A DNA stretch of 39,058 bases, taken from IMG/VR virus record IMGVR_UViG_3300012208_000002; one strand, 5' to 3'. Made by a program: the position numbers and the translations under genes. Each line of letters begins with the position of its first letter. Position 1 is the first letter of the stretch. Positions 5,678 to 34,609 of the stretch are shown here, one piece after another. This DNA comes from a virus. Lineage: Duplodnaviria > Heunggongvirae > Uroviricota > Caudoviricetes. The notes below the pieces were generated by a model, which saw only the letters and a program-made list of their open reading frames with translations, was not told the DNA's origin and did no database searches.

Positions 5678-5704
5678 TGTACACCGCCTTAGTTGGATTT
5701 GATT

Positions 5705-5926
5705 CTAAACTTCCTCGCCTGCTGGATTAAACACCCGCAAGGGGCGTGGAAATGTTCCCTGGTGGCGTGTGGAGAAACGTCCTACTTCACACGTAAAGCC
5801 GTCCGAGAATGTGTAGCGTGTGCCGTACCATCCTCCGAATCCCCACGCATTATTGGTATTGACCTTTGTGCTCATGACAGGTTCACCGTGAACCAGCTTG
5901 ACTGCCTTGAATGACGGACGCTTCAT
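5705..5926 (-). CDS. hypothetical protein (MKRPSFKAVK...)
   Basis: start trimmed to ATG overlapping the upstream TAA. Confidence 0.55.
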   Translation of the reverse strand: MKRPSFKAVKLVHGEPVMSTKVNTNNAWGFGGWYGTRYTFSDGFTCEVGRFSTRHQGTFPRPLRVFNPAGEEV

Positions 5927-6123
5927 TAGGACACCTTCGCAATCTTGCCCGCTACCATCACAACTGTAGCGAACCACTTGCGCTCCGTTGGGCTCGGTCC
6001 CACAACATTGAACTTGCCGTCTGCCTTGTACTCAGGACCAAAGAAGCTGGTTTCCTCGTAACGCAGTTCCTGACCGACTGCCGCTTTCAGGTCCTTCTTT
6101 GATTTGTAATAGGCTCCCATCAT
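5926..6123 (-). CDS. hypothetical protein (MMGAYYKSKKDLK...)
   Basis: GTGAGGA RBS, promoter immediately upstream. Confidence 0.7.
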   Translation of the reverse strand: MMGAYYKSKKDLKAAVGQELRYEETSFFGPEYKADGKFNVVGPSPTERKWFATVVMVAGKIAKVS

Positions 6124-10282: not shown

Positions 10283-10357
10283 GGTGAGCGTCGTATAACG
10301 GTAGTACTTCCGGCTGTGAACCGGATAGCACGGGTTCGACACCCGTCGCCCACCCCA
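10283..10357 (+). tRNA. trnH: tRNA-His (GTG)
   Basis: cloverleaf, G-1/C73, CCA. Confidence 0.9.
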
Positions 10358-10400
10358 AGTTCTTTCTGGCAGTCAGGTCCTATCCCTAGATTGCCGGATG

Positions 10401-10463
10401 AAGAAAGTTTAAAATAGTGCTTGACAGAATTTCGATTCTGTGAGACACTAGACAAGTCAAAGT
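10401..10463 (+). promoter_or_regulatory. tRNA-array promoter copy 2 (TTGACA 10421-10426, GACACT 10444-10449)
   Basis: repeat of 10213-10277; spacer hairpin ACAGAAT-TTCG-ATTCTGT. Confidence 0.75.
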
Positions 10464-10487
10464 AAACTTTAATTCGAAAGGACTACT

Positions 10488-10634
10488 GTGGAATACAAAG
10501 TTACGTTAACTCAGAAAGTCAAAATCGAAGTAGAAGCAGAGACACCGCAGTCAGCGCTAGAACAGGCTAAGGCTCAAGCCACAGCCGATAACAGAATTTT
10601 TGAACCTGACACATTTTCAGTAAAAGAACAGTAA
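10488..10634 (+). CDS. 48-aa protein MEYKVTLTQKVKIEVEAETPQSALEQA... (DpnD/PcfM-like pattern)
   Basis: read manually; AAAGGA RBS, GTG start. Confidence 0.65.
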   Translation: MEYKVTLTQKVKIEVEAETPQSALEQAKAQATADNRIFEPDTFSVKEQ

Positions 10635-10642
10635 GAAGTTTA

Positions 10643-10716
10643 CCTGCTTTGATGTATCGGTCGCATCCTCGCCTGAAGAGCGAGTCGAGCTAGTTCGATT
10701 CTAGCAGGCAGGACCA
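10643..10716 (+). tRNA. trnF: tRNA-Phe (GAA)
   Basis: cloverleaf, loop CTGAAGA, CCA. Confidence 0.88.
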
Positions 10717-10722
10717 AGTTTT

Positions 10723-10810
10723 GCGTCTGTGGATGGAATTGGCAGACACGTCGCTCTCAAAAAGCGATGCCCTAAACGGCGTGGGAGTTCGAGTCTCCCC
10801 GGACGCACCA
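10723..10810 (+). tRNA. trnL: tRNA-Leu (CAA)
   Basis: cloverleaf with variable arm, CCA. Confidence 0.93.
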
Positions 10811-10817
10811 AGATTGA

Positions 10818-10914
10818 AATCGTGAGCACAGCGGAAGCGTCAACTTCTCGGGTGCTTGTTCATTTACAGCGTTGACGCGCTCATGTGAATAAGGGTTCGA
10901 TTCCCTCACGGATA
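10818..10914 (+). ncRNA. tRNA-like RNA with T-arm and oversized central stem-loop, no CCA
   Basis: AGGG-TTCGATT-CCCT; AATCGTG/CACGGAT; GCGTCAAC/GTTGACGC. Confidence 0.45.
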
Positions 10915-10922
10915 TTAGATTT

Positions 10923-11014
10923 AGTCTCATAGCACAACGGCAGTGCAGCGGCCTTATACACCGTAAGCTCCGGATTGGAGCGTGATGTAGGTTCGAATCC
11001 TACTGAGACTACCA
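10923..11014 (+). tRNA. tRNA with TAT anticodon (nominal Ile) and long variable arm
   Basis: 7/5 cloverleaf, loop CTTATAC, V-arm GCTCC/GGAGC, A73, CCA. Confidence 0.8.
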
Positions 11015-11019
11015 GTTTT

Positions 11020-11106
11020 GTGGCTGTGATGGAATAGGCAGACAGCAATCACTTAAAACGATTGGCTCGAAAGAGCGTAGGGGTTCAAGTCCCTTCAGCC
11101 ACACCA
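11020..11106 (+). tRNA. trnL: tRNA-Leu (TAA)
   Basis: cloverleaf with variable arm, CCA. Confidence 0.9.
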
Positions 11107-11112
11107 AGTTTC

Positions 11113-11187
11113 GCGCTTCAAGTGTTACGATAGCACAGCGGGCTCTTAACCCGTCGAGACTCAGTTTAATTCTGAGGAGGCGCACCA
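11113..11187 (+). tRNA. trnK: tRNA-Lys (CTT), non-canonical D/T loops
   Basis: cloverleaf, T-loop TTTAATT, CCA. Confidence 0.85.
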
Positions 11188-11192
11188 AGTTT

Positions 11193-11256
11193 CGGGTTCT
11201 CACTTCGTTGTTCGGGTGAGGTAATTGGCGAACGGATACGTAGCCGATTCCTGAGA
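11193..11256 (+). ncRNA. putative three-way-junction structured RNA
   Basis: CTCACTT/GGGTGAG and ATTGGC/GCCGAT hairpins closed by TCGGG/CCTGA. Confidence 0.35.
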
Positions 11257-11263
11257 AAGTTTT

Positions 11264-11339
11264 GGACTGCTACGTCAAAGGCAAGACTACGCGCCTTTTA
11301 AGCGCTGGAATCTCCGTTCGAGTCGGAGGCGGTCCACCA
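11264..11339 (+). tRNA. trnK: tRNA-Lys (TTT)
   Basis: cloverleaf, CCA. Confidence 0.9.
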
Positions 11340-11343
11340 AATT

Positions 11344-11434
11344 TCCCATCGGTGTGAGAACGCACCGTTCGCTTTCAAGGCAGAAGCGGCGTCATTCCGT
11401 TCGACTCGGATTCGCGGCGAAGTTCACGATGGGA
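11344..11434 (+). ncRNA. tRNA-like RNA with TCA in an anticodon-like loop and an extra hairpin, no CCA
   Basis: TCCCATCG/CGATGGGA, D-like GTGT/GCAC, loop TTTCAAG, TCCG-TTCGACT-CGGA. Confidence 0.5.
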
Positions 11435-11442
11435 TTAAGTTT

Positions 11443-11539
11443 CATGGGAATACAGTTCGGAATTACATCGAACAGTCGTCGGGAAGACTAGTCAGTACCG
11501 CCGAAAGGACGGGGCGAGAAACCCCGGGTTCCCAGACCA
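11443..11539 (+). ncRNA. cryptic cloverleaf RNA ending in ACCA with 8-nt anticodon-like loop
   Basis: TGGGAAT/GTTCCCA, GTTCG/CGAAC, AGTC-GTCGGGAA-GACT, CGGGG-CGAGAAA-CCCCG. Confidence 0.5.
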
Positions 11540-11541
11540 TT

Positions 11542-11679
11542 ATGTATATTGATTACGAAAGTTTTTCTGCTGAATCTCTCGCCGAGGATCGGGAAAAGAT
11601 GTGGCAAGATATTGTAGATGAACTTTATGAAAAGTTAAACGGAGAGGTTGGGGCAACAGGTCGCCCTACTCGGCTGTAA
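11542..11679 (+). CDS. 45-aa acidic micro-ORF ending inside tRNA-Tyr
   Basis: read manually; no clear RBS. Confidence 0.4.
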   Translation: MYIDYESFSAESLAEDREKMWQDIVDELYEKLNGEVGATGRPTRL

Positions 11680-11729
11680 CCCGAGAGTCCCTTGGGACGT
11701 TATAGGTTCGAATCCTATTCTCTCCACCA
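11641..11729 (+). tRNA. trnY: tRNA-Tyr (GTA)
   Basis: cloverleaf with variable arm, CCA. Confidence 0.92.
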
Positions 11730-11730
11730 T

Positions 11731-11804
11731 ATTCGACTCGTTCAACGGTAGGACCCGCGTCCGATTAACGCGGTATCAAGGTTCGAATCCTTGGTCGAAT
11801 ACCA
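11731..11804 (+). tRNA. trnI: tRNA-Ile (GAT), atypical anticodon loop CCGATTA
   Basis: cloverleaf, CCA; C33 and U37. Confidence 0.8.
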
Positions 11805-11807
11805 ATT

Positions 11808-11936
11808 ATGACGTACGAAGAAAAAGCAGAAGCATTGAATAAACATGCTGACTCGTGTCCGCAATGTAACCTATCACGGAAGTGTAGTGATACTCGCGGA
11901 TGCTGTGAAGAAGGTAAAAAGATTTTGGGCTGTTAG
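11808..11936 (+). CDS. 42-aa Cys-rich micro-ORF (CPQC...C...CC) ending inside tRNA-Ala
   Basis: read manually; no clear RBS. Confidence 0.45.
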   Translation: MTYEEKAEALNKHADSCPQCNLSRKCSDTRGCCEEGKKILGC

Positions 11937-12000
11937 TTAAGTGGGATAACGGTTGCCTTGCACGCATCAGTCGGGAGTTCGACTCTCCCACGGTCCACCA
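11927..12000 (+). tRNA. trnA: tRNA-Ala (TGC)
   Basis: cloverleaf, G3-U70, CCA. Confidence 0.92.
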
Positions 12001-12008
12001 ATTTCAAT

Positions 12009-12083
12009 ATGCTGCTGGCAGATCGGCAGATGCACTCGGTTTACACCCGAGACAGCGGGGTTCAACTCCTCGGCGGCATACCA
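12009..12083 (+). tRNA. trnV: tRNA-Val (TAC)
   Basis: cloverleaf, CCA. Confidence 0.9.
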
Positions 12084-12159
12084 GTTTAATGATCGTCTTG
12101 CTGTAGACCGGAAATAAGCAGCCTCCGTTTAGGGAGTAGCGCAAACTCCTCCATATTTT

Positions 12160-12235
12160 GGGCTTGTCATCTAACAGGACAAGGTTCAGGTCTACGAAAC
12201 CTGCAATTACGGTTCGAGTCCGTACAGGCCCACCA
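12160..12235 (+). tRNA. trnR: tRNA-Arg (ACG)
   Basis: cloverleaf, A20, CCA. Confidence 0.92.
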
Positions 12236-12240
12236 AGTTC

Positions 12241-12315
12241 GGACTGTTCGTTCAATGGATAGGACACCGCGCTTCGAACGCGGCTATAGGGGTTCGAATC
12301 CTCTACGGTCTACCA
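12241..12315 (+). tRNA. trnR: tRNA-Arg (TCG)
   Basis: cloverleaf, A20, CCA. Confidence 0.92.
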
Positions 12316-12345
12316 AGTTTATGTAGTGCGATGCGTTGGCCCTAA

Positions 12346-12465
12346 GTGCGGTTGACAGGGGCATCTGGCCCAGATTATTACGCCTGACGAAGCGAAAGCA
12401 GAAACTCGAAAGAGTCGCGTGGAGTCCTCCCATCTGGGAAATAAATGAGGACCTAAAGACCGCAC
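12346..12465 (+). ncRNA. type I hammerhead ribozyme core (12378-12422) inside a closed structured RNA
   Basis: CTGACGA, GAAA, GTC triplet, stems I and III paired; outer GTGCGGT/ACCGCAC. Confidence 0.65.
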
Positions 12466-12474
12466 AAATTTTAT

Positions 12475-12549
12475 TGGTGGTTCGTCTAATGGTAAGACGC
12501 TCGGCTGTTAACCGTGAAGATGAAGGTTCGAATCCTTTGCCACCAGCCA
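12475..12549 (+). tRNA. trnN: tRNA-Asn (GTT)
   Basis: cloverleaf, G73, CCA. Confidence 0.92.
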
Positions 12550-12554
12550 TTTAA

Positions 12555-12628
12555 GCCGAATTAGTATAGTGGTAGTACGTCGAGCTTGTACCTCGAAAGT
12601 GAGCGTCCGATTCGTTCATTCGGCTCCA
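12555..12628 (+). tRNA. trnT: tRNA-Thr (TGT)
   Basis: cloverleaf, T-loop TCCGATT, CCA. Confidence 0.9.
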
Positions 12629-12636
12629 GTCTCTCA

Positions 12637-12772
12637 GTTGTGCGGATAGTATCGTGCGATAGTTGGCCGAAGTGATGTGAGAGCATCCTCGGATACATCC
12701 CTCACGCTGGCTACCATCCAATGACGGTAGGCACCGTTGCTTTCGAGTAACGAGTAACGCCAGTCGCACAAC
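12637..12772 (+). ncRNA. putative multibranched structured RNA (136 nt)
   Basis: GTTGTGCG/CGCACAAC closing stem, GATGT/ACATC, CTGGC/GCCAG, CTACC/GGTAG, GTTGC/GTAAC. Confidence 0.5.
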
Positions 12773-12782
12773 AAAGATTTTT

Positions 12783-12856
12783 GCACTTATGATCTAATGG
12801 TATGATGCCGCTTTCGTAAAGCGGACGTGGTGGTCCGATTCCATCTAGGTGCTCCA
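12783..12856 (+). tRNA. trnT: tRNA-Thr (CGT)
   Basis: cloverleaf, T-loop TCCGATT, CCA. Confidence 0.9.
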
Positions 12857-12869
12857 GTTTAGGAGTAAG

Positions 12870-13031
12870 ATGATTGACAAGATTATTTTTGGATTACAAG
12901 CAGGAAGCTTCTCTTTGATGCTGGTCCTGTTAATCTTTTTCAAAGCGTCTTACGGTTTGATGATTTCGACTTTTGGTTTGCATGCTCTTGCTGATACATT
13001 GTTCGTACTACGCAGTAAAGGAGTACTATGA
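12870..13031 (+). CDS. small two-helix membrane protein (MIDKIIFGLQ...)
   Basis: AGGAG RBS before ATG 12870; hydrophobic. Confidence 0.65.
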   Translation: MIDKIIFGLQAGSFSLMLVLLIFFKASYGLMISTFGLHALADTLFVLRSKGVL

Positions 13032-13216
13032 ACCTATCAACGATTCTGAGTTCTGTAGACAAGTACATTAAGATCAAGTCCTGGCTTCAGTTTGTTGGTT
13101 ACATGTTAGCGTTCGGCGGATTGGTATTCATCGAACACCCGCTCGCAAAGATAGTAGCGTACGTCGGTTTAGGCGTCAGCATGGCAGGATTTTTGTACGA
13201 CATGATTTATCCTTAA
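13028..13216 (+). CDS. small two-helix membrane protein
   Basis: AGGAG RBS, ATGA overlap, hydrophobic. Confidence 0.7.
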   Translation: MNLSTILSSVDKYIKIKSWLQFVGYMLAFGGLVFIEHPLAKIVAYVGLGVSMAGFLYDMIYP

Positions 13217-13223
13217 GAGTTTC

Positions 13224-13284
13224 GCGGTCGCAGTGGCTATTCCGGCGCTGTGCTAAGTGGGAAGTCCGATGCCTTCTAACCGCC
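13224..13284 (+). ncRNA. short tRNA-like remnant or structured RNA ending in CCA
   Basis: GCGGT/ACCGC, GCAGTG/CGCTGT, GAAG-TCCGATGC-CTTC. Confidence 0.3.
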
Positions 13285-13291
13285 AGTATTC

Positions 13292-13365
13292 GCTTCGATG
13301 GTTCAATGGTAGAACGGGTCCTTGGTAAGGATCAGACTACAGTCCGATTCTGTATCGAAGCTCCA
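13292..13365 (+). tRNA. trnT: tRNA-Thr (GGT)
   Basis: cloverleaf, T-loop TCCGATT, CCA. Confidence 0.92.
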
Positions 13366-13387
13366 GTAACTTGTCCGAAAGGGCATA

Positions 13388-13463
13388 GGAAGTTTTAAAC
13401 AGTTAGACGCGCAAGCGGACCTTACAGTCGAAAGACGGGACGGACCCTTAGTAAGGAACTTCC
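13388..13463 (+). ncRNA. putative GNRA-rich multibranched RNA
   Basis: GGAAGTT/AACTTCC, CGC-GCAA-GCG, CCTTAC/GTAAGG, GTC-GAAA-GAC, GGG/CCC. Confidence 0.5.
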
Positions 13464-13477
13464 GAGCATTTAGTTTT

Positions 13478-13552
13478 GGTGCTAGGGTCAGTTGGTAACG
13501 ACGAGCCCCTGTCACGGGTTAAGTCCGGGTCCGATTCCCGGTAGCACCGCCA
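13478..13552 (+). tRNA. trnD: tRNA-Asp (GTC)
   Basis: cloverleaf, G73, T-loop TCCGATT, CCA. Confidence 0.92.
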
Positions 13553-13565
13553 GTTTAGGAGACTT

Positions 13566-13646
13566 ATGATTATAGGAATTCTCATAGGTGTCATAGCATT
13601 AGTTGTGTTCTTGTACATGATAAAAGGTATGGGATACAAAGAGTAA
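13566..13646 (+). CDS. 26-aa single-pass membrane peptide MIIGILIGVIALVVFLYMIKGMGYKE
   Basis: read manually; AGGAGA RBS. Confidence 0.6.
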   Translation: MIIGILIGVIALVVFLYMIKGMGYKE

Positions 13647-13650
13647 TTAC

Positions 13651-13724
13651 GGCCCTGTCGTCTAAAGGCAGGACATTTGCTTCTCAAGCAAGCGACGGCG
13701 GGTCAGTACCGCCCAGGGCCTCCA
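13651..13724 (+). tRNA. trnE: tRNA-Glu (CTC), atypical T-loop GTCAGTA
   Basis: cloverleaf, CCA. Confidence 0.85.
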
Positions 13725-13763
13725 ATTTAAATTTCATATCAATTGACCGGAGGGTCTAAGTAT

Positions 13764-14186
13764 ATGAGTAGTTCAGATAACGATAGGAACAGACGCAGGA
13801 GTGACTTCTTAGGTGTGTCGTTTAGTACGGCCACATTTAAATTAAGAAAGAAAATTTTATTCCATCTTCTTAAAAAGCACCAAGAAGATGTTTGCTCTCA
13901 GTGCGGTAAAAAGATTGAGACGATAGAAGAATTGAGTATTGAGCATTTAAAGCCGTGGGAAGGAATTTCTGTTGACCTGTTTTGGGATATCGAAAACATA
14001 GCGTTTTCTCATATTCGTTGTAATGTACCGCATAAATACAATAACGGTCAATTAAAGCCCAGGCCCGACGGAGCAGACTGGTGCGGCCCAGGGCAGCATT
14101 TCGCTCCCGTTGAAGATTTTTACAAGAGCAAATGGTATCATACAGGAAGGCAGAAGTGGTGTAAAATTCACCGTCCTGCTAGATAA
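13764..14186 (+). CDS. HNH endonuclease-like protein
   Basis: CSQCG...SIEHLKPW...NIAFSHIRCN; GGAGG RBS before MSSS. Confidence 0.8.
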   Translation: MSSSDNDRNRRRSDFLGVSFSTATFKLRKKILFHLLKKHQEDVCSQCGKKIETIEELSIEHLKPWEGISVDLFWDIENIAFSHIRCNVPHKYNNGQLKPRPDGADWCGPGQHFAPVEDFYKSKWYHTGRQKWCKIHRPAR

Positions 14187-14194
14187 TTTTGAGT

Positions 14195-14280
14195 TTGCAC
14201 GTTACTGTTTTGGCTTCAGCATGCGTTGAGAGTCAAGGCGTCAACTGAGACCGTCTACCGCATGTAGAACGGGAGTGCAA
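14195..14280 (+). ncRNA. putative pseudoknotted RNA
   Basis: TTGCAC/GTGCAA, GTTGA/TCAAC, CCGT-CTAC-CGCAT-GTAG-A-ACGG; loop CGCAT complementary to upstream ATGCG. Confidence 0.45.
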
Positions 14281-14287
14281 TTAATAT

Positions 14288-14362
14288 GGCGATATCGTCC
14301 AGTGGCTAGGACGGGTGACTTTCAATCACCAAACCAGGGTCCGATTCCCTGTATCGCTACCA
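14288..14362 (+). tRNA. trnE: tRNA-Glu (TTC)
   Basis: cloverleaf, T-loop TCCGATT, CCA. Confidence 0.92.
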
Positions 14363-14411
14363 ATATGTTTCACTATACGGACACATGTGTCTTTATAGCG
14401 AGATAAGTAAT

Positions 14412-14496
14412 GCGCTAGTGGTGGAACGGCAGACACGCCAGTCTTAGAAACTGGTTCTGAAAACGAGTGGGGGTTCAAATCCCTCCTGGCGCACCA
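14412..14496 (+). tRNA. trnL: tRNA-Leu (TAG)
   Basis: cloverleaf with variable arm, CCA. Confidence 0.93.
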
Positions 14497-14505
14497 AATT
14501 TCTGT

Positions 14506-14580
14506 TGCGGTGTATAGTTCTGGTGAACTTCGAGGTCTCATAAGCCTTGCAGGAAAGTTCGATTCTTTTCGCCGCTACCA
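14506..14580 (+). tRNA. trnM: tRNA-Met (CAT), initiator-like
   Basis: 1:72 mismatch (T/T), loop CTCATAA, CCA. Confidence 0.8.
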
Positions 14581-14585
14581 ATTTA

Positions 14586-14663
14586 CGCTGAGAGGTCCAC
14601 CGGAAAGTGGACGGCGGTCTCATAAACCGTAACAGGTTGGTTCGACTCCAACTTCAGCGACCA
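14586..14663 (+). tRNA. tRNA with CAT anticodon (elongator Met or Ile2)
   Basis: cloverleaf, D-stem extendable to 6 bp GTCCAC/GTGGAC, CCA. Confidence 0.85.
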
Positions 14664-14669
14664 ATTCGA

Positions 14670-14743
14670 GCGGCTGTGGTTCAGTGGTAGAATTCGTCCT
14701 TGCCAAGGATGAGATACGGGTCCGATTCCCGTCAGCCGCTCCA
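14670..14743 (+). tRNA. trnG: tRNA-Gly (GCC)
   Basis: cloverleaf, U73, T-loop TCCGATT, CCA. Confidence 0.92.
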
Positions 14744-14752
14744 AGTTCACGC

Positions 14753-14820
14753 GCCTGTCAAGGCATTGGGGTCGCCCCAGAATACTGACCTTCCGACTAG
14801 TAAGCCCGCGAGGGGACTAG
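14753..14820 (+). ncRNA. three-hairpin structured spacer
   Basis: GCCT/AGGC, TGGGG/CCCCA, CTAGT..CCC-GCGA-GGG..ACTAG. Confidence 0.3.
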
Positions 14821-14830
14821 CAAAAATTTT

Positions 14831-14929
14831 ATGAGCAAAGAAAAAGAATGTTTAGATTGTAAAGTTCCAGTACGTGAGTCCTCAGAAGGACTTCGAAACG
14901 AAGACGGAACTTTTCATATCTGTAAATAA
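14831..14929 (+). CDS. 32-aa micro-ORF with CxxC...HxC (MSKEKECLDCK...)
   Basis: read manually; fills spacer exactly. Confidence 0.45.
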   Translation: MSKEKECLDCKVPVRESSEGLRNEDGTFHICK

Positions 14930-14934
14930 GTTTT

Positions 14935-15008
14935 GCGGGTGTGGTATATAGGTTGTGCCCTGGCCTTCCAAGTCAGAGAAACGAGTCCGAGTCTCGTCAC
15001 CCGCTCCA
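14935..15008 (+). tRNA. trnG: tRNA-Gly (TCC)
   Basis: cloverleaf, U73, T-loop TCCGAGT, CCA. Confidence 0.9.
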
Positions 15009-15013
15009 AGTTT

Positions 15014-15087
15014 AGGCTGTTAGGACAATGGTAGTCTACTCGCCTCCAAATCGAGTGATGGGAGTTCAATTCTCTCACGGCCTGCCA
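15014..15087 (+). tRNA. trnW: tRNA-Trp (CCA)
   Basis: cloverleaf, G73, CCA. Confidence 0.9.
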
Positions 15088-15096
15088 AATTTGCAA

Positions 15097-15197
15097 ACGC
15101 TGCTGGTCAGCGGTGTTAGCGGGGTTAGCGCCCCGATGACCTATTTCGGTAACTTCCGAGCGCCTTATGCCGGGCGAGATGGCTTGAAACCCAAGGC
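15097..15197 (+). ncRNA. putative multi-hairpin RNA
   Basis: CGCTG/CAGCG, CGGGG/CCCCG, TCGG/CCGA, CGCC/GGCG hairpins in series. Confidence 0.35.
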
Positions 15198-15208
15198 TAT
15201 AATTTTAT

Positions 15209-15284
15209 GGTCCCGTGGTCTAACGGAAAAGGCAACAGCCTTCTAAGCTGAAAGATGAGTGTTCGATTCACTCCGGGACTACCA
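15209..15284 (+). tRNA. trnR: tRNA-Arg (TCT)
   Basis: cloverleaf, CCA. Confidence 0.92.
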
Positions 15285-15289
15285 GTTTT

Positions 15290-15365
15290 GGTTCTGTAGC
15301 TCAAACGGAAAGAGCATCTGCCTCCTAAGCGGGAGATGACGATTCGAGTTCGTCCAGGACCACCA
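15290..15365 (+). tRNA. trnR: tRNA-Arg (CCT)
   Basis: cloverleaf, CCA. Confidence 0.92.
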
Positions 15366-15372
15366 GTTTTAT

Positions 15373-15677
15373 TTTGGTAAGCCAGACTGTCGCGGGAAAC
15401 CGAGGAACTTCTGGACATCACTAGACAGAGAGCCGTGGAAGTTGCGGGCCGAGTAATCGGACGGGTAAGGCTTCGTATGTAAGCGAGCGCTGACATTGCA
15501 AAATGTCATCGAGCGCTGACATCATTCAAGCGAAGGCACTCCACTCTCGATGCAATCTCAAATAGGGCTGGAGCGCGTCTAGCGTTATGATAGCCGGGTT
15601 GAGAGCAAAGACGGATGACAGTCAGGTTGACACCTAACAGTGGCGACCGACAGAATCCAGGGTATCGGCTAACCAAA
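15373..15677 (+). ncRNA. rnpB: RNase P RNA (compact, bacterial A-type-like)
   Basis: P1, P2 GACTGTC/GACAGTC, P4 GAGGAACTTCTGGA with TCCAGGGT, CTCCAC...GCAA...CAAATAGGG, ACAGAA 3' motif. Confidence 0.85.
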
Positions 15678-15684
15678 GCATTAC

Positions 15685-15771
15685 GGAGAAGTGGCGAAAT
15701 GGTAGACGCAACGGTTTGCTAAACCGTCGTACCGAAAGGACGTGGGAGTTCAAGTCTCTCCTTCTCCGCCA
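15685..15771 (+). tRNA. trnS: tRNA-Ser (GCT)
   Basis: cloverleaf with variable arm, G73, CCA. Confidence 0.93.
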
Positions 15772-15778
15772 ATTTAAT

Positions 15779-15869
15779 GGAGCGCAGTCGGCAATGGTGC
15801 CCCACTGTCTTGAAAACAGTACTATCCCTTATAAAGGATAACGGAGTTCGATTCTCTGGCGCTCCTCCA
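15779..15869 (+). tRNA. trnS: tRNA-Ser (TGA)
   Basis: cloverleaf with variable arm, U73, CCA. Confidence 0.88.
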
Positions 15870-15875
15870 TTTAAT

Positions 15876-15952
15876 GTCTCAGATGCTGAAGCGGTCGAAG
15901 CGGAAGTCTGCAAAACTTCTCTTAGTCAGTTCGAGTCTGACCTGGGACTCCA
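15876..15952 (+). tRNA. trnC: tRNA-Cys (GCA)
   Basis: cloverleaf, U73, CCA. Confidence 0.9.
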
Positions 15953-15959
15953 ATTTTAT

Positions 15960-16034
15960 TGGCTTGTCGTCTAATCGGTAGGACGAAGGACTTTGAATCC
16001 TTCTATCCAGGTTCGAGTCCTGGTGAGCCAACCA
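15960..16034 (+). tRNA. trnQ: tRNA-Gln (TTG)
   Basis: cloverleaf, U1-A72, CCA. Confidence 0.9.
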
Positions 16035-16041
16035 TTTCAAT

Positions 16042-16116
16042 TGCCCGATCATCTAATTGGTAGGATAGCGGACTCTGAATCCGCGCATCTAGGTTCGAGT
16101 CCTAGTTGGGCAGCCA
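16042..16116 (+). tRNA. trnQ: tRNA-Gln (CTG)
   Basis: cloverleaf, U1-A72, G73, CCA. Confidence 0.92.
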
Positions 16117-16208
16117 ATTTAGCAACACACTGAACAGAGGCTTCGCTAATCCCGAAACAGTGTACATCCTTGTAAGTGCTCTGCCAAGTATCAAGGATGA
16201 GGTGCAAG

Positions 16209-16964
16209 ATGAGAAAATTTCTTGCGTTGTTCACATTAGCTACTTTACTTGTCCTGGGCGGTCTTCTTGTAAAGCCCTGGAATTCATACGAGCCCGAAGC
16301 ACGACTCGCATCTGGTGCGATGTTTTCAGGCAGCGACCGTAGTTTTCACTGTTCTGGCACTGAGATCGGCGCTACAGCAGACGGCGGTGGGATATTCCTG
16401 ACCGCACGTCACTGTGTAGCCGACCCACAGACAAATAAGCTTAACGAGCACTTCGCCGTCTCATTCACAGATAACCAGGGTGGTCCGTTTTATGACGCCA
16501 CGCCTATTGCGCTATCTTTGAGCGACGACCTGGCTCTGCTCTACGTAAAGAATGGCGCTGGTATTCCACAGGTCCGAATTAAGGACGAGCGCAGTCTCCG
16601 TAGTGGCGACCCGATATTCAACGTCTCGTTCCCATTGGGCACGGGCAAGGAACTGTTCCACGGCGAGTACATGCGTGCGAGCTTCCCGACGTTCCCTAGT
16701 ATCATAGCAAGTTATCCGCAGTGGCTGTACGCTATGCCGATGAACATGACTATCGCGCACGGTTCAAGCGGAAGCGGCGTGTTCAGTAATAAGCAGCGTG
16801 CTCTTATTGGAGTTGCCGTAGGAACCTTCGAAGAGGGAACTTACAATATCGCAATTCCAGCAGACCGTGTCCTGGACTTTCTAAACGATTTGAAAGACAA
16901 CACGGTGGAGAAGTTTAAGTATGCTTTTCCAGAAAAAGAACCTAACGAATTCATGATGTTTTAA
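16209..16964 (+). CDS. trypsin-like serine protease with N-terminal membrane anchor/signal
   Basis: LTARHC, DDLALL, HGSSGSG triad motifs; MRKFLALFTLATLLVLGGLLV. Confidence 0.85.
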   Translation: MRKFLALFTLATLLVLGGLLVKPWNSYEPEARLASGAMFSGSDRSFHCSGTEIGATADGGGIFLTARHCVADPQTNKLNEHFAVSFTDNQGGPFYDATPIALSLSDDLALLYVKNGAGIPQVRIKDERSLRSGDPIFNVSFPLGTGKELFHGEYMRASFPTFPSIIASYPQWLYAMPMNMTIAHGSSGSGVFSNKQRALIGVAVGTFEEGTYNIAIPADRVLDFLNDLKDNTVEKFKYAFPEKEPNEFMMF

Positions 16965-16970
16965 TTTTAT

Positions 16971-17059
16971 CGGGGTGTAGTTCCGTAATCTGGCAGCGGT
17001 CTCGCTTTGGAAGCGAGTGGTTAATACCCTTGGAGGTTCAATTCCTCTCACCCCGACCA
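16971..17059 (+). tRNA. trnP: tRNA-Pro (TGG) with extra nucleotides before the D-stem and enlarged variable region
   Basis: CGGGGTG/CACCCCG, loop TTTGGAA, CCA. Confidence 0.8.
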
Positions 17060-17106
17060 TTTTGTTCGAAGAAGTATAGTACTTGGAGTGTAGTATAGGA
17101 GCGCAA

Positions 17107-17391
17107 ATGAACGTTATATCTATGGTAGCTAATCTTGTCAAAGAACGAGATTACTACAAAGAATCATTCATAGAGTGTCAAGCTATCATTAAACAGTTAG
17201 CTGAAGGTCCTGGCGATATCGAATACATTCATCCATTTGATATGTATGATATTCTTAACTCAACGGACGCTAGTGAATTCATCGATGTTTACACGGGTCC
17301 GAAGGATGAAAGAACTTTTACGTTAGGTAAATCTGGAAAGAAATACAAGCAATCTCAGTTCATTCCAGCAAAGTCGAAAAATTTTAAGTAA
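17107..17391 (+). CDS. hypothetical protein
   Basis: AGGAG RBS before MNVISM. Confidence 0.7.
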   Translation: MNVISMVANLVKERDYYKESFIECQAIIKQLAEGPGDIEYIHPFDMYDILNSTDASEFIDVYTGPKDERTFTLGKSGKKYKQSQFIPAKSKNFK

Positions 17392-17392
17392 T

Positions 17393-17471
17393 CGAGAAAT
17401 AGAGGAGCCTGGCTTATCTCGCCCCGTTCGGAACGGGGAGCACGCTGGTCCGAATCCAGCTTTCTCGACCA
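17393..17471 (+). tRNA. trnP: tRNA-Pro (CGG)
   Basis: cloverleaf, T-loop TCCGAAT, CCA. Confidence 0.9.
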
Positions 17472-17477
17472 TATTAT

Positions 17478-17503
17478 AGCCGCCTGATACTTGGGCGGCT
17501 TTT
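17478..17503 (+). terminator. rho-independent terminator closing the tRNA array
   Basis: GCCGCCT/GGGCGGC then TTTT. Confidence 0.7.
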
Positions 17504-29453: not shown

Positions 29454-30104
29454 ATGGCTGGCGAAAACCCAAACGAACAAGTAATCTGTTACGTTTCACG
29501 TCACGGTACTACTGACTGGAATGCGAATTCCGGGAACGGTGGCGGAAGATACAGAGGTCAAAAAGATATCCCGCTAGACGCTCAGGGAAGAGAAGATGCG
29601 AAAGAGGCTGCTAGGTTTCTTGCTAATATAAAATTCGGTCAAGCCTGGTCTAGTGATTTAAGCCGTTCAAAAGATACAGCTAAAGAGATATTAAAAGGGA
29701 AAGGCATCAAGGTCATCCCGCTAGCATCCCTAAAACCATTGGATTCGGGTAAGTTTACAGGCATGCAGAAAGACGACGCCAAAGAGGACATGAAGTACTA
29801 TCAGGAACATACAGATGTTCGAATTCCTGGCGGAGAGTCTATCGACGGAATGCATAAGCGAGTTCGTCCTCCTGTATTCAAAGCATTCAGGGCAGGGCTA
29901 AGAACAGGAAAGCCTAGCCTTCTTGCTGTACACTCAAGCGTAATTCACAGTATAGGTCACTTGCTTCATGACGACCACACTGCCGCTCTAGTCGAGCCTG
30001 GTGGAGTCATCGAAGTTATATTTGACGGAAAGAAGTTTCACGCAAAGCCGATTTTCAAGGCTAAGAATGATAAGGGTACGGGGGAAGCGCACTACGCTTC
30101 TTAG
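29454..30104 (+). CDS. histidine phosphatase superfamily protein (phosphoglycerate mutase-like)
   Basis: SRHGTTDWN, DIPL, SSDLSRSKDTA, PGGES, AVHS. Confidence 0.9.
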   Translation: MAGENPNEQVICYVSRHGTTDWNANSGNGGGRYRGQKDIPLDAQGREDAKEAARFLANIKFGQAWSSDLSRSKDTAKEILKGKGIKVIPLASLKPLDSGKFTGMQKDDAKEDMKYYQEHTDVRIPGGESIDGMHKRVRPPVFKAFRAGLRTGKPSLLAVHSSVIHSIGHLLHDDHTAALVEPGGVIEVIFDGKKFHAKPIFKAKNDKGTGEAHYAS

Positions 30105-30127: not shown

Positions 30128-32479
30128 ATGCTAGCGGGACAGGAAAAGAGGGATTGGGAGTTTGTAAGCTATCGAGCAAAGAAGCAGATGGCACTCTGGC
30201 CCAGGTTGGTCAGGGGAGAAGCCGAAGGACTCGATCTTTCTGGGGTAGACCCTGAAATTCTTGCTTGCTGCGTTGAGGGAAAAAACTTCCGAAGCGAAGG
30301 TCACGTTAGTCCTGTAGACGGAACGGGCCGTATAAAGTCTCCGATGGAAGAGATGTGGCTACTGTACATCGGCGTACAGAGCATATCTGAAGAAGACGAA
30401 GCACGCGGCAAGGATAAGCCTGAGTCCAAGACTAAGGCCAAATCTAAGCCTAAGAAGTCGAAGGATCGGGATGACGAAGCGATAGAGCCTATCAAGGCCC
30501 GTCGAGTAGTAGGTCATCAGATTATCGATAAGGATTCAAATCCTACGGATCAGTGGTCTTACGATTCCGTTCAGTGGATTAATGACAAAACAGGAAAGCC
30601 AACTGGGGGAATTAACGCCTACGGCGGAATTCATTTCCACGATGACGGCTATCTTGATTTTTCAGCGTGGCTGTATGCTAGGGACCAGGCTCGAAAAGAC
30701 CTTCTCTGGTTTAACGTCGCCGTACTGGGGAACACTAAAGTAAACAGAGCAACTCATCAAATTGTATGTAATCAATTCGTTCAGAAGAATTTTGATGGGG
30801 TGTATAGGCGTGGATATTCTTTGGACGTGGTCCAGGCATCTATCGGACGCCAAAATCGAATTCCTGTTCAGTGGAATCCGGTTATTAAGAATTACGAACC
30901 CATTCTAGAAGAAGCATCGATTCCAGAGAATTTAGAGTCGATGATGATTTTGCTGTACCCTCGTGGATTTTTCAAGTCCACTATCGGTCGTGCAGACGCG
31001 GTCCAATGGCTGTTGAATTGCCCTGACATATCTATGATGATTATGACTGCGGCCCGCGACCTAGCGGCCCAGTTCGTTTTGGATATAAAAAGGCAATTTT
31101 ATTTAGCGAAAGGCGCAGACCCGAAAGCACTTCATTTACTATTCCCTGAGTATGTTCTTCGCGGAGTAGACGGAACTTCGGCTGAAGACTTAATTTGCCC
31201 TGCTCGCCGCCGTGAACGCATTTACCCAACTTTATGGGCTGATAGTATTGATTCTACACTTTCTGGGTGGCACTGCGATTTATTGAAGTTTGATGACGCG
31301 GTCTCAAACACTAACTGTCTTACAGACACGACCAGAGAAAAACTTCGTGGCAGTATCGATAACACCCTGAACTTATGCGATCCTTGGGGCAAAGTCGATA
31401 TGCTAGGAACCAGATACTTCCCTGACGATTATTACGGAACCCGTTTTGATAAGTATATCGAAGAACCAGAGACGGCGGGATTGAAGTTTTTTGTTGGCGC
31501 AGCATGGTACGTTAAATCAGAGTTCATTCATATCGAGAGAAAAAGTCTCAGAGATTTGATGGAACATATGGTTATTCTGACGTTCCCAGAGCACGCCTCT
31601 TTTAAGTCTCTTCGCGGAAAACTGGTTAACAATGAGCAAGAATTTCGTTGCCAGCAGTTAAATCAACCTGTGTGGGGAGCAGGCAAGGTTGATCTTCCTC
31701 TTGCACTTCTACAAGCCCACATGATGTTGCCTACAGAGGCTAAGGCTCTGAAAGGCGATGTCCTCATTATGGGCGACATGGCTAAAGAGGCCAAGAAAAA
31801 CTCAGATTACTCCGCCTTCGTTGCCGTAAAGATTTTTCAGAGAATAGACCAAGCAACAAATACACCGATAGGTCCTGTCTCTGTTGTGGTTCTTGAAGTC
31901 GTTTACGGAAAGTGGAGTCAGTCAGAAACAGCAAACAGTCTTGCAGAACTAAATAAAAGATGGCTGCCGTGGCGTATTCAGATTGAGAATACAGGTGGTC
32001 TAGAGTCTTTTATGACTTACGCCATACCGGATGCATTTAAGAAAACCAACTTGCCTTGGCATCATATTTATTGGGCTGCTGTTGAGCAAGGTTTCGATGC
32101 AAAGCGTAATCGTATTAAGGGTCTAGAAATTCTTCTCAAGGCAGAACGATTGTGGTTCTCTATGGGTCCTTGGAATGACGAAACTTTCTCCCAACTGAGT
32201 CAATACACGGGCGCAAAGAGTACTCGAAGCAGAAAAGATGATATACCAGATGCTATGGCATTCATTTCTAAATACCTGCCTAGCAGCACTCCGAAGACAC
32301 CCGAAGAACAGGAACAGGAAGCAAATCAAGCCGAAAAAGAGATGATGGCAAAATTTCTGGCGGCGCAGCACGAAGCATATTTTGGCAATAGTAATCCCAA
32401 CTTCGCACCACAACAAATAGAGGAATCCCCGATATCTTCTCCGTATGACGACATTAAGAAGAAGTTTTTGGGAAGATAG
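30128..32479 (+). CDS. terL: terminase large subunit with N-terminal extension
   Basis: PRGFFKST Walker A, FDDA Walker B, MGDMA..SDYSA and KDDIPDA nuclease motifs. Confidence 0.9.
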   Translation: MLAGQEKRDWEFVSYRAKKQMALWPRLVRGEAEGLDLSGVDPEILACCVEGKNFRSEGHVSPVDGTGRIKSPMEEMWLLYIGVQSISEEDEARGKDKPESKTKAKSKPKKSKDRDDEAIEPIKARRVVGHQIIDKDSNPTDQWSYDSVQWINDKTGKPTGGINAYGGIHFHDDGYLDFSAWLYARDQARKDLLWFNVAVLGNTKVNRATHQIVCNQFVQKNFDGVYRRGYSLDVVQASIGRQNRIPVQWNPVIKNYEPILEEASIPENLESMMILLYPRGFFKSTIGRADAVQWLLNCPDISMMIMTAARDLAAQFVLDIKRQFYLAKGADPKALHLLFPEYVLRGVDGTSAEDLICPARRRERIYPTLWADSIDSTLSGWHCDLLKFDDAVSNTNCLTDTTREKLRGSIDNTLNLCDPWGKVDMLGTRYFPDDYYGTRFDKYIEEPETAGLKFFVGAAWYVKSEFIHIERKSLRDLMEHMVILTFPEHASFKSLRGKLVNNEQEFRCQQLNQPVWGAGKVDLPLALLQAHMMLPTEAKALKGDVLIMGDMAKEAKKNSDYSAFVAVKIFQRIDQATNTPIGPVSVVVLEVVYGKWSQSETANSLAELNKRWLPWRIQIENTGGLESFMTYAIPDAFKKTNLPWHHIYWAAVEQGFDAKRNRIKGLEILLKAERLWFSMGPWNDETFSQLSQYTGAKSTRSRKDDIPDAMAFISKYLPSSTPKTPEEQEQEANQAEKEMMAKFLAAQHEAYFGNSNPNFAPQQIEESPISSPYDDIKKKFLGR

Positions 32480-32488
32480 GAAACCTAA

Positions 32489-34609
32489 ATGACGGAATCG
32501 TTAAACCAGCACGCGGCTGAAACTCTAGAGAGTAGGGCAGTCGATCCTGTAGGCGATATAACGTCAGAGAACATGAAGAAGGACCAGGATACTGGGACTT
32601 ACATGTACGATGACGGAGCAGCATTAAAACTAGTTATCGATGACGCTGCACGCGCCGATCAGTACGCAAACATAAACCAGTGGTCGAGCGCATGGACGGA
32701 ATCCGATATTATTTTGCAGAGCCCGCGTCAAGCTTCGGCTTTCGACGGTGGTAACGTAGCTCAGGCAAACGTTCCGAAGTTTACGCTTTCAAATCACATT
32801 AGTTCGATTGTTCCTAAAGTCATAGAGGGTTTGTTTTATGAAGACCCCCCGTTCATACTTCGTCCGCGCCCTGGCACAAAGCAAGAAGTAACACGGGCAA
32901 AGACCGCTCTGTTCTCCGCGCAACTTTGGGATATGAAGTTTCAAACCCAGTTGAGACGCGGCACAGAGCAGATGGCTCTTCTGGGCACCACGATATTCAA
33001 GTGGGGCTATCTTGAGCACGACGATCAAATCAAGAGGGCTCGTCGTAAAGCATCCCAGGTAACTCTTAATACAACGATTCCGGTTCCAGCAATCGATACC
33101 CCGGACTCTGACGATTTCGAAACCTACGTTGAAGCAGTAAAGATTTCTCGTCCGTGGATTAGGTTCTGCGATATCCGTACAGTCCTTGTGGACCCTGGCT
33201 GTCGTGTTGGTGATATCCGTGAAGCAAAGTGGGTCATCTATAGAGATTATGTAACGTACGATGATCTGAACAATCTGCGAGCAATTCCAGGCTACAACAT
33301 CCTGAGCGAAGAAGACCTGAAAGCATTCTTCTTGTCTGGTCCAACAGTGGGCGCGGACAACATCAGCATGACTATCCCGGAAGGTATGCGCGGATACTTG
33401 CAGCATGCCCTTCCTAGAAGCTTCAAGACCAGTGCCGATCCTTTGCAGGCACCGATGGAACTTCTTGAACGTTGGGACAGAGATAAAGTTATCGTTATAC
33501 TGTCTTTCAACGGTCAAAACATTTTACTTAGAAATGAACCTAACCCATACGGCAAGTTGCCGTTCCTTAGCGCAAACTGGAGAGACCTTCCAGATAGCTT
33601 TTACGGACAGGGCTTAGGACAACTTATCGGGGCAGAACAAATCGTTGAGCAAGGGATAACGAACCTAGCATTAGACCTACTTGCCTATGGTTTGCAGCCC
33701 ACAGCAGTTCGAAAGAAGGGCTTCAACGTTCCTACTCAGATGACGCGCTGGAAGCAGGGCGGCATAATTGATGTGGACGATGACGTGGAGAAGGCATTCA
33801 AGTTTTTGACGATGCCCCCGGTCCCAGGCGAAGCTTGGCAATTCTTACAACAGGCAAGAGCCGCCGCGCAAGAGACTTCAGGCGCAAACGAACAAGTTAT
33901 GATGGGCGCTGGTTCTGCTGGCGTCAAGACAACAGGAATGCGTTCTGGTACGGGCGCAGCAGCCGTGGTACAGGCTAATGCATCTAGATTGGACGGCCCT
34001 AGCAGCCGCTTGGTAGAACAGGTTTTCGAACCCTGGATTTACCAGATGGACGAACTGAATAATCTGTTGCTTCCGACAAAAGTTCTACGCCGCATATTGG
34101 GCGAAGAATTGGGTATGGTTTACGAAGGGGATCATATCGAGTTTCGTAATGCGAAATTCGAATATGAGGTTCTGGCAGGAGCGCACTTGGGCGCAAAGAA
34201 GGAAATGGCCCAGGCTCTTCCAATCATAATTCAACTTTTGAATAATCCTACATTTACGAAACTTGTTAATGAGGCTCAATTCACATTTGATGCGGTCGCT
34301 ATTTTCAAGGCATTTACTGACGCAGCGGGCTGGAAGTTCAGTCAAGATTTCTTGCGCCAGATGACGCCAGATGAATCGCAACGCTATCAAGCCAACTCTC
34401 CCGCAGCCATGCAAGCGCAGCAATTGCAGGGGCAGAAGGATATGCAGGAACGAAAGTTCCAGCAAGATCGAATTCTTGAAGATGAGAAGTCGCTCGGAAA
34501 GGCTGGAGCAGAGGCACTTCGATCAGCAACTGAACATAGTTTGAGTATGGAGCAAACAGGGGAACCAAGTAGCAATCCTCAGTCCTTCGGATCAACAACA
34601 ACGTTATAG
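32489..34609 (+). CDS. portal protein (P22-like)
   Basis: 706 aa after terL; NPYGKLPF, FYGQGLGQLI, Q-rich C-terminal barrel. Confidence 0.85.
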   Translation: MTESLNQHAAETLESRAVDPVGDITSENMKKDQDTGTYMYDDGAALKLVIDDAARADQYANINQWSSAWTESDIILQSPRQASAFDGGNVAQANVPKFTLSNHISSIVPKVIEGLFYEDPPFILRPRPGTKQEVTRAKTALFSAQLWDMKFQTQLRRGTEQMALLGTTIFKWGYLEHDDQIKRARRKASQVTLNTTIPVPAIDTPDSDDFETYVEAVKISRPWIRFCDIRTVLVDPGCRVGDIREAKWVIYRDYVTYDDLNNLRAIPGYNILSEEDLKAFFLSGPTVGADNISMTIPEGMRGYLQHALPRSFKTSADPLQAPMELLERWDRDKVIVILSFNGQNILLRNEPNPYGKLPFLSANWRDLPDSFYGQGLGQLIGAEQIVEQGITNLALDLLAYGLQPTAVRKKGFNVPTQMTRWKQGGIIDVDDDVEKAFKFLTMPPVPGEAWQFLQQARAAAQETSGANEQVMMGAGSAGVKTTGMRSGTGAAAVVQANASRLDGPSSRLVEQVFEPWIYQMDELNNLLLPTKVLRRILGEELGMVYEGDHIEFRNAKFEYEVLAGAHLGAKKEMAQALPIIIQLLNNPTFTKLVNEAQFTFDAVAIFKAFTDAAGWKFSQDFLRQMTPDESQRYQANSPAAMQAQQLQGQKDMQERKFQQDRILEDEKSLGKAGAEALRSATEHSLSMEQTGEPSSNPQSFGSTTTL

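Follow-up and report, generated by a model that had tools for sequence, protein, structure and literature searches.

A family of type A RNase P RNAs encoded within phage tRNA arrays

Introduction

Can a phage encode, and keep under selection, the RNA of RNase P, and what would such an RNA do among the tRNAs of the phage itself? This question is raised by a locus in a 39,058-nt stretch of DNA from a virus of the class Caudoviricetes (IMGVR_UViG_3300012208_000002), the whole of which is referred to below as the window, and in which a first-pass annotation had placed an RNase P RNA gene. RNase P RNA generally counts as a gene universal to cells. Large phages import parts of the host translation apparatus, among them tRNA arrays and tmRNA (PMC7162821), and a viral RNase P RNA lineage would add to these phage-carried parts the tRNA-processing ribozyme itself.

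Results and discussion

An RNase P RNA gene within a phage tRNA array

The check proposed with the annotation, a search with Rfam covariance models, bore out the proposed identity, giving a match on the + strand to RF00010 (bacterial class A RNase P RNA) that spans model positions 1 to 367, i.e., the entire model, with an E value of 6e-31 and a score of 104.0 bits that exceeds the gathering score of 100 bits only narrowly (Table 1). The gene is shorter than E. coli M1 RNA (307 versus 377 nt). In the cmscan clan competition, RF00010 won both for the window and for every 300-nt relative; the archaeal model RF00373 was best for none of them. Across the whole window (1-39058), RNase P RNA and 27 tRNAs were the only Rfam families found at gathering thresholds, and neither hammerhead nor any other ribozyme family reached the Rfam cut-off.

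That the gene is phage encoded, as had been assumed, is shown by the genes for the terminase large subunit (30128-32479) and the portal protein (32489-34609) downstream of it and by syntenic copies in related viral contigs; the majority of the remaining window open reading frames (ORFs) had no Pfam family match. The 601-nt stretch around the ribozyme gene was found whole in four soil metagenome runs belonging to three studies. Spacers between the tRNA genes of the array are usually 5 to 9 nt long, with several of >100 nt, and the spacing of the ribozyme gene from its two tRNA neighbors is tRNA-like. Promoter-like sites numbered 13 in the window against 7.5 ± 2.4 in shuffled sequences. The two + strand sites near the ribozyme gene, which overlap the start of a tRNA or ACAGAA, look fortuitous, and a dedicated promoter is not claimed.

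TABLE 1 Features of the RNase P RNA gene and its surroundings in the window (position n of the RNA corresponds to window position 15373 + n)
Feature	Position(s)	Strand	Remarks
Array of 33 tRNA genes	10284-17471	+	All on + strand, all CCA-encoded
tRNAs with C55	12555-12628, 12783-12856, 13292-13365, 13478-13552, 14288-14362, 14670-14743, 14935-15008, 17393-17471	+	Within the array
tRNA-Arg(CCU), upstream neighbor	15290-15365	+	CCA-encoded; 8 nt before the ribozyme gene
RNase P RNA gene	15374-15680	+	307 nt; P1 closes at 15676; RF00010 match, 20 distinct homologues
5' strands of P1 and P2	15374-15391	+	P1, 15374-15384 with 15665-15676; P2, 15385-15391 with 15617-15623
Minimal P3	15393-15402	+	CGG-GAAA-CCG (3 bp and GAAA loop)
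CR-I, including P4 5' strand	15402-15416	+	P4, 15407-15415 with 15656-15663; bulged U at 15410 = E. coli U69
P6 pseudoknot, 5' strand	15422-15426	+	UAGAC; partner GUCUA in the L17 loop, 15577-15581
Specificity domain	15428-15548	+	P7, P8, P9 (GUAA loop, bulged A), P10/P11, P12-like hairpin; no P13/P14
P11 and P12-like hairpin	15469-15537	+	Holds the 13-mer repeat and the conserved single-stranded CAUUCAA bulge
CTCCAC motif	15539-15544	+	
J5/15	15552-15555	+	GCAA = E. coli G246-A249, including A248
P15-P16-P17 arm	15556-15604	+	L15 GGGU at 15596-15599
CAAATAGGG motif	15559-15567	+	
J15/2 (CR-IV)	15605-15616	+	AGA-N-G-R-AUG; no P18 between P15 and P2
J2/4 insert	15624-15649	+	Variable length; small hairpin in most relatives
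CR-V	15650-15663	+	ACAGAA (15650-15655) and P4 3' strand (UCCAGGGU)
tRNA-Ser(GCU), downstream neighbor	15685-15771	+	4 nt past the model match, 8 nt past P1
Terminator-like hairpin	17478-17500	+	Directly 3' of the last tRNA; 10-bp stem and T-rich tail; consensus match only

The catalytic domain keeps its pairing with altered bases

The elements that the first-pass annotation had listed, namely, P1, a 7-bp P2, a very short P3, and the CTCCAC, GCAA, and ACAGAA motifs, were each found where it had placed them. P1 consists of 11 pairs and one A·A mismatch, while all seven pairs of P2 are Watson-Crick pairs. The conserved regions CR-I and CR-V read GAGGAACUUCUGGAC and ACAGAAUCCAGGGUA, respectively, and the RNA of the window also has the CAAAUAGGG element, AGA..AUG in the strand preceding P2', a GNRA loop in L9, and the bulged A in P9. 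The L15 loop carries GGGU, the motif by which type A RNAs pair with the 3' CCA of tRNA. P18 is absent, with 0 nt matched to the 24 model positions 280 to 303, and the same was seen in all seven relatives aligned.

In E. coli rnpB numbering, P4 is made up of A66-U360, C67-G359, U68-G358, the bulged U69, C70-G357, U71-A356, G72-C355, G73-C354, and A74-U353. It had been described as fully compensated, and it is so: the departures from E. coli, at 67/359, 68/358, 71/356, and 74/353, all still pair, and U69 is still bulged.

One hairpin and a 7-nt bulge in the specificity domain

The specificity domain (S-domain) had been called reduced, which holds insofar as P13 and P14 are missing (17 nt stand against 48 model positions, and relatives are likewise affected); however, the reduction is only moderate, with 121 nt from P7 to P7' and with P7 to P12 retained. 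The P12-like arm is one long irregular hairpin between the P11 strands, closed by a GCAA loop and followed by single-stranded CAUUCAA, and the predicted fold of P11 with this hairpin has an energy of −27.6 kcal/mol (z = −3.5). The direct repeat reported in this domain is real, but it is actually a 13-mer, CGAGCGCTGACAT, at 15484-15496 and 15510-15522, whose copies are merely the two strands of the P12-like hairpin; its core, AGCGCU, is palindromic, i.e., self-complementary. In one relative (locus L065), the same hairpin carries a GUGA loop replacing GCAA. Among the 20 family members described below, the insert between the P11 strands varies in sequence and from 28 to 110 nt in length, and in 16 of them the predicted fold has a single hairpin arm immediately on top of P11, with a CAUUCAA, CAUUCGA, or CAUUGGA bulge unpaired. 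Thus, one variable P12-like hairpin and a conserved 7-nt bulge stand in for the usual S-domain module (J11/12-J12/13), which in cellular RNAs reads the tRNA T-loop.

A family of phage homologues under selection on the fold

A terminase relative from IMG/VR, a 100.8-kb contig of 95% completeness whose TerL is 60% identical, contains a full-length RF00010 match (72.7 bits) between tRNA-Arg(CCU) and tRNA-Ser(GCU), at distances of 8 and 3 nt, the arrangement seen at locus L011. Two blocks common to both phages were then searched for among viral sequences, metagenomes, and genomes, and the element was located with nhmmer, which left 20 distinct family members from viral and metagenome contigs after the removal of duplicates. 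All 21 copies (these 20 and the copy at locus L013) lie inside tRNA arrays, on the strand of every tRNA of the locus. RF00010 scores ranged from 72.7 to 112.1 bits over nine distinct phage sequences, L013 included, with three of the nine reaching 100 bits. The L013 copy (5694-5990), which is 297 nt long and scores 112 bits, belongs to a separate lineage and lies in a tRNA array of a complete 173-kb viral contig. A 190-nt miniature was observed at L018 (147-336), likewise in a tRNA array, on a 172.6-kb viral contig, and it scored best on RF00373 (40.8 bits). No RNase P-like match was found at L012 and L014 to L017, which are loci of the first search pattern. A 19-mer signature of the family also matched 9 contigs of bacterial genomes and another 20 metagenome loci, at which nhmmer did not find the element, and these were set aside as chance or coding matches.

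The alignment of the 20 members, built from MAFFT and Rfam cmscan output, has a mean column identity of 49% and carries the helices of the window. Standard pairs fill 92.0% of its pair cells, against 75.7% in shuffles; changes on both sides occur in 47 of the 74 pairs, and none of 500 shuffles reached any of the observed measures. As a control, sliding the partners by 1 to 3 columns lowered the pairing to between 28% and 37%. P4 is 100% paired in the 20 sequences, with four of its eight pairs compensated and U69 present in 20/20, and the P6 pseudoknot is also 100% paired, with compensation at 5/5 pairs. P2 (100% paired, five of seven pairs changed on both sides), P15 (100%), P16 (92%), and P11 (82.5%) all covary strongly. 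These compensatory changes over 20 homologues, P4 and P6 included, substantiate the earlier supposition of selection, and the phage RNase P RNA is a gene under selection on its fold, including the catalytic P4/P6 core.

The invariant core of the family comprises the bulged U69, A65/A66, GCAA with A248, CAAAUAGG, the L15 GGG, AGA..AUG, and ACAGAA, and the CAA of J5/15 is the same in every member. The same holds for the GNRA loop in L9 and for the bulged A in P9, although the invariance of P8/P9 is not counted as evidence, since the P8/P9 sequence served as a search pattern. No helix varies more in length than P3, which measures between 10 and about 100 nt in the family members. In two members, at L023 (3059-3393) and L063 (1956-2339), the P3 loop holds a common insertion of ∼70 to 90 nt, the sequence of which is conserved between both.

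Among the cultured phages of INPHARED, neither the element nor the 10-kb array had a similar sequence by blastn or megablast. Judged by its terminase, the closest cultured phage is Tunturiibacter phage Tunturi_3, which comes from tundra soil and is only a distant relative; it is 24% identical over 62% of TerL and has no RF00010 match, and thus there is no cultured system for this phage lineage.

P4 residues rarely altered in cells are exchanged in the phage family

The cellular sample comprised 64 RNAs, to which the phylum of an Acidobacteriota genome contributed 30 and that of a Pseudomonadaceae genome 31, the remaining three coming from elsewhere; one genome (G034) enters a tally only, and none of its sequence was used. 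Full-length cellular copies scored 163 to 347 bits on RF00010. At the P4 pair 67/359, 63 of these RNAs have A-U and one has C-G, while the 20 phage members have G-C (13), A-U (4), or C-G (3). At 68/358, all 64 cellular RNAs have G-C, one of the 5' strands being inferred from its 3' partner, while the phage family has U-G in 14 members, U-A in 3, G-C in 2, and C-G in 1. The window, with C67-G359 and U68-G358, departs from the canonical identities A67-U359 and G68-C358, which are a conserved trait of cellular RNAs rather than a formal class criterion, and its U71-A356 pair is unique within the sample. U69 is a bulged U in the 50 cellular RNAs scored for it, and hand inspection of 14 cellular loci missed by the first pattern showed ordinary bases at 67 and 68, with only the ACAGAA motif deviating. 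Positions 67 and 68 lie within the part of P4 that is linked to the binding of catalytic metal ions. The phage family hence keeps the geometry of the catalytic P4 while swapping bases that are almost never changed in cells.

Two further RF00010-like matches turned up in the cellular sample. One, of 209 nt and 65.5 bits, lies on a separate small contig from the Acidobacteriota-phylum sample (G059:C375:584-792) and possibly represents binned phage DNA. The other is a weak match of 226 nt and 33.6 bits, located 55 nt from a genuine rnpB in the Pseudomonadota-phylum sample (G077:C22:272535-272760).

The tRNAs of the array

CCA is encoded by 33/33 tRNA genes of the window and by nearly all of those in the arrays of relatives (e.g., 29/29 and 25/25). 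In cellular tRNAs, U55 is near-universal and is modified to pseudouridine. In the window, eight of the 33 tRNAs (three Thr, two Gly, and one each of Asp, Glu, and Pro(CGG)) have C55 instead of U55, in a T-loop reading UCCGAUU or a close variant. Of the 15 arrays examined in relatives, 13 also contain tRNAs with C55 or with G55, the latter of the UGCAAAU type. The atypical elbows that had been ascribed to the phage tRNAs thus proved genuine.

Two tRNAs are far above the usual length for their acceptors, tRNA-Ile(UAU) with 92 nt (10923-11014) and tRNA-Pro(UGG) with 89 nt (16971-17059), and each may thus contain an insertion or an extended extra arm; in addition, no D-loop GG was seen in tRNA-Pro(UGG) in the stretch scanned. 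Protein genes also occur within the array: one of two HNH endonuclease genes (PF01844; 13743-14186 and 27405-27887) lies inside it, and a trypsin-like peptidase gene (16176-16964) separates tRNA-Gln from tRNA-Pro. Elsewhere in the window are a gene of the RNA ligase family (815-1414, − strand; PF09414, E = 6e-13) and one for a histidine phosphatase (29454-30104, + strand; PF00300, E = 2e-30), which, together with the tRNA array, may serve RNA repair or tRNA maintenance.

Protein partner and expression

No RnpA (PF00825) was detected among the 40 ORFs of the window by a Pfam scan, in agreement with the annotation, or by a six-frame search of relatives that were 95%, 100%, and 51% complete (the two more complete being G001 and G005 and the third G002); the same six-frame search detected RnpA in 10 bacterial genomes used as a positive control. 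The accompanying proposal that the RNA borrows the host protein fits this absence from the window and from near-complete relatives, and use of host RnpA is the simplest reading that we infer from the sequences, although a phage cofactor that escaped recognition may take its place. Docking of the L14 and L18 loops on P8 is a hallmark of type A RNAs, and with P13, P14, and P18 lost, only one of three tetraloop contacts is left to join the type A domains. Given these lost interdomain contacts, the activity of the phage RNA alone may be poor.

None of the four metatranscriptome runs covers this phage itself. Contigs of other family members were present in three metatranscriptome runs, a kind of library that can contain DNA, and one of them, of 263 nt and with a differing S-domain insert, is about the size of the RNA; these contigs give a weak hint that family members are expressed.

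Proposed role and alternative explanations

We favor, with a probability of roughly 0.7, the reading that the element is a functional phage-encoded RNase P RNA, derived from type A, which is transcribed with the array and uses host RnpA to act on phage pre-tRNAs. The invariant CCA-binding loop, together with the placement in tRNA arrays, points to tRNA as the substrate, and the 33 tRNAs of the array are presumed to be both the substrates and the co-transcripts of the ribozyme. In the sequence of events that we envisage, the ribozyme would be transcribed as part of the tRNA array and would be freed by an RNase P cut at the 5' end of tRNA-Ser and by 3' processing of tRNA-Arg. It would then assemble with host RnpA and cleave the 5' leaders of the CCA-bearing phage pre-tRNAs, by which tRNA-maturation capacity would be raised or secured in infection.

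A further reading, that the remodeled S-domain and the relaxed P4 co-evolved with the phage's own tRNAs, a quarter of which carry C55, into a virus-specific RNase P, is tentative and in our view rather unlikely. Were it true, the phage would possess a private tRNA-maturation channel for tRNAs that the host enzyme handles poorly, or for times at which host RNase P is limiting or attacked.

It is also conceivable, if improbable, that the RNA is a noncatalytic decoy, the RnpA-binding core of which either sequesters host RnpA, thereby throttling the maturation of host tRNAs, or redirects this protein. The failure to find a phage rnpA, the replacement of the near-invariant cellular P4 residues 67 and 68, and the loss of the interdomain struts P14 and P18 would all suit such a decoy. 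However, conservation or covariation extends over the L15 GGG, A248, U69, P6, and the S-domain core from P7 to P11, which goes beyond a platform for protein binding, and a phage that provides 33 CCA-ending tRNAs of its own depends on tRNA processing that works and is not blocked. About as improbable is a catalytically active RNA that, in place of host RnpA, needs no protein or uses a phage protein not recognized as such, maybe in cis on the polycistronic transcript. The ribozyme lies only 4 to 8 nt from the neighboring tRNAs, and the many window ORFs with no family match leave room for a novel cofactor, but no conserved candidate for one was identified, and natural RNase P RNAs without P13, P14, and P18, as in archaeal type A, are generally known to depend more on protein.

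Substrates other than tRNA, such as phage mRNAs or structured RNAs in the array spacers, are a poorer prospect still: cellular RNase P does have such substrates (PMC11143913) and several array spacers are long enough to exceed 100 nt, yet 21 out of 21 copies sit in tRNA arrays on the tRNA strand, with an invariant CCA-binding loop. Finally, the low score on the covariance model and the lack of several helices could be taken for decay of a host rnpB copy captured by chance, and an assembly chimera of phage and host DNA might also be considered, but both are excluded for practical purposes because the diverged homologues uphold their pairing by compensation and share a conserved layout, the synteny recurs in independent assemblies and the stretch is complete in runs of three studies, and the family signature never accompanied the element in the nine bacterial genome hits.

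Novelty and significance

In the full-text literature searched, outside subscription journals, we found no account of an RNase P RNA encoded by a phage or any other virus, and none is given in a review of RNase P history (PMC11143913), the Bcheck genome survey, or a paper on mycobacterial tRNA clusters. The element is a viral lineage of a known RNA, the type A RNase P RNA, with a derived architecture of its own. Its family offers natural experiments, in that ribozyme variants of working size exist without P13, P14, and P18, and the retention of P4 shape while near-invariant residues are exchanged bears on the roles of shape and base identity in catalysis. Moreover, the favored reading, a working ribozyme with host RnpA, provides a testable idea of how phages with large tRNA arrays secure tRNA maturation.

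Comparison with known systems

With the bacterial type A RNA (RF00010; E. coli M1 RNA, rnpB), the phage RNA shares the framework of P1 to P12 and P15 to P17, the P4 and P6 pseudoknots, U69 and A248, as well as the L15 GGU, the GNRA L9 loop, and the CR-I, CR-IV, and CR-V motifs. It differs in having no P18, P13, or P14, a P3 of 3 bp, relaxed P4 identities, and an S-domain module of one hairpin and a 7-nt bulge, and its gene differs in being virus encoded, inside a tRNA array, and with no accompanying rnpA. Judged by this architecture, it is a viral lineage of type A ancestry in which P18, P13, and P14 appear to have been lost and P3 to have been shortened.

The archaeal type A RNAs (RF00373) have an architecture devoid of P13, P14, and P18 that keeps P12, P15 to P17, and P6, and they function with four or five unrelated proteins. 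The phage RNA resembles them in these missing and retained helices; in contrast, the bacterial model fits the window best, and nothing points to an archaeal ancestry or host.

The RNase P RNAs of plastids and cyanelles are type A derivatives that are weak ribozymes by themselves and need a protein encoded elsewhere (PMC4264200). The phage RNA is, like them, a type A derivative retained in a small genome, whereas theirs are organelle genes inherited vertically from cyanobacteria and that of the phage belongs to a viral family with its own derived S-domain. The huge-phage survey cited above names tmRNA, while none of the terms RNase P, ribonuclease P, and rnpB occurs in it (PMC7162821). Theta and HDV-like ribozymes also adjoin phage tRNA genes and are thought to act in tRNA maturation (PMC10879173); these are small and self-cleaving and work in cis on one tRNA, whereas the phage RNase P RNA is of the trans-acting, multiple-turnover enzyme type.
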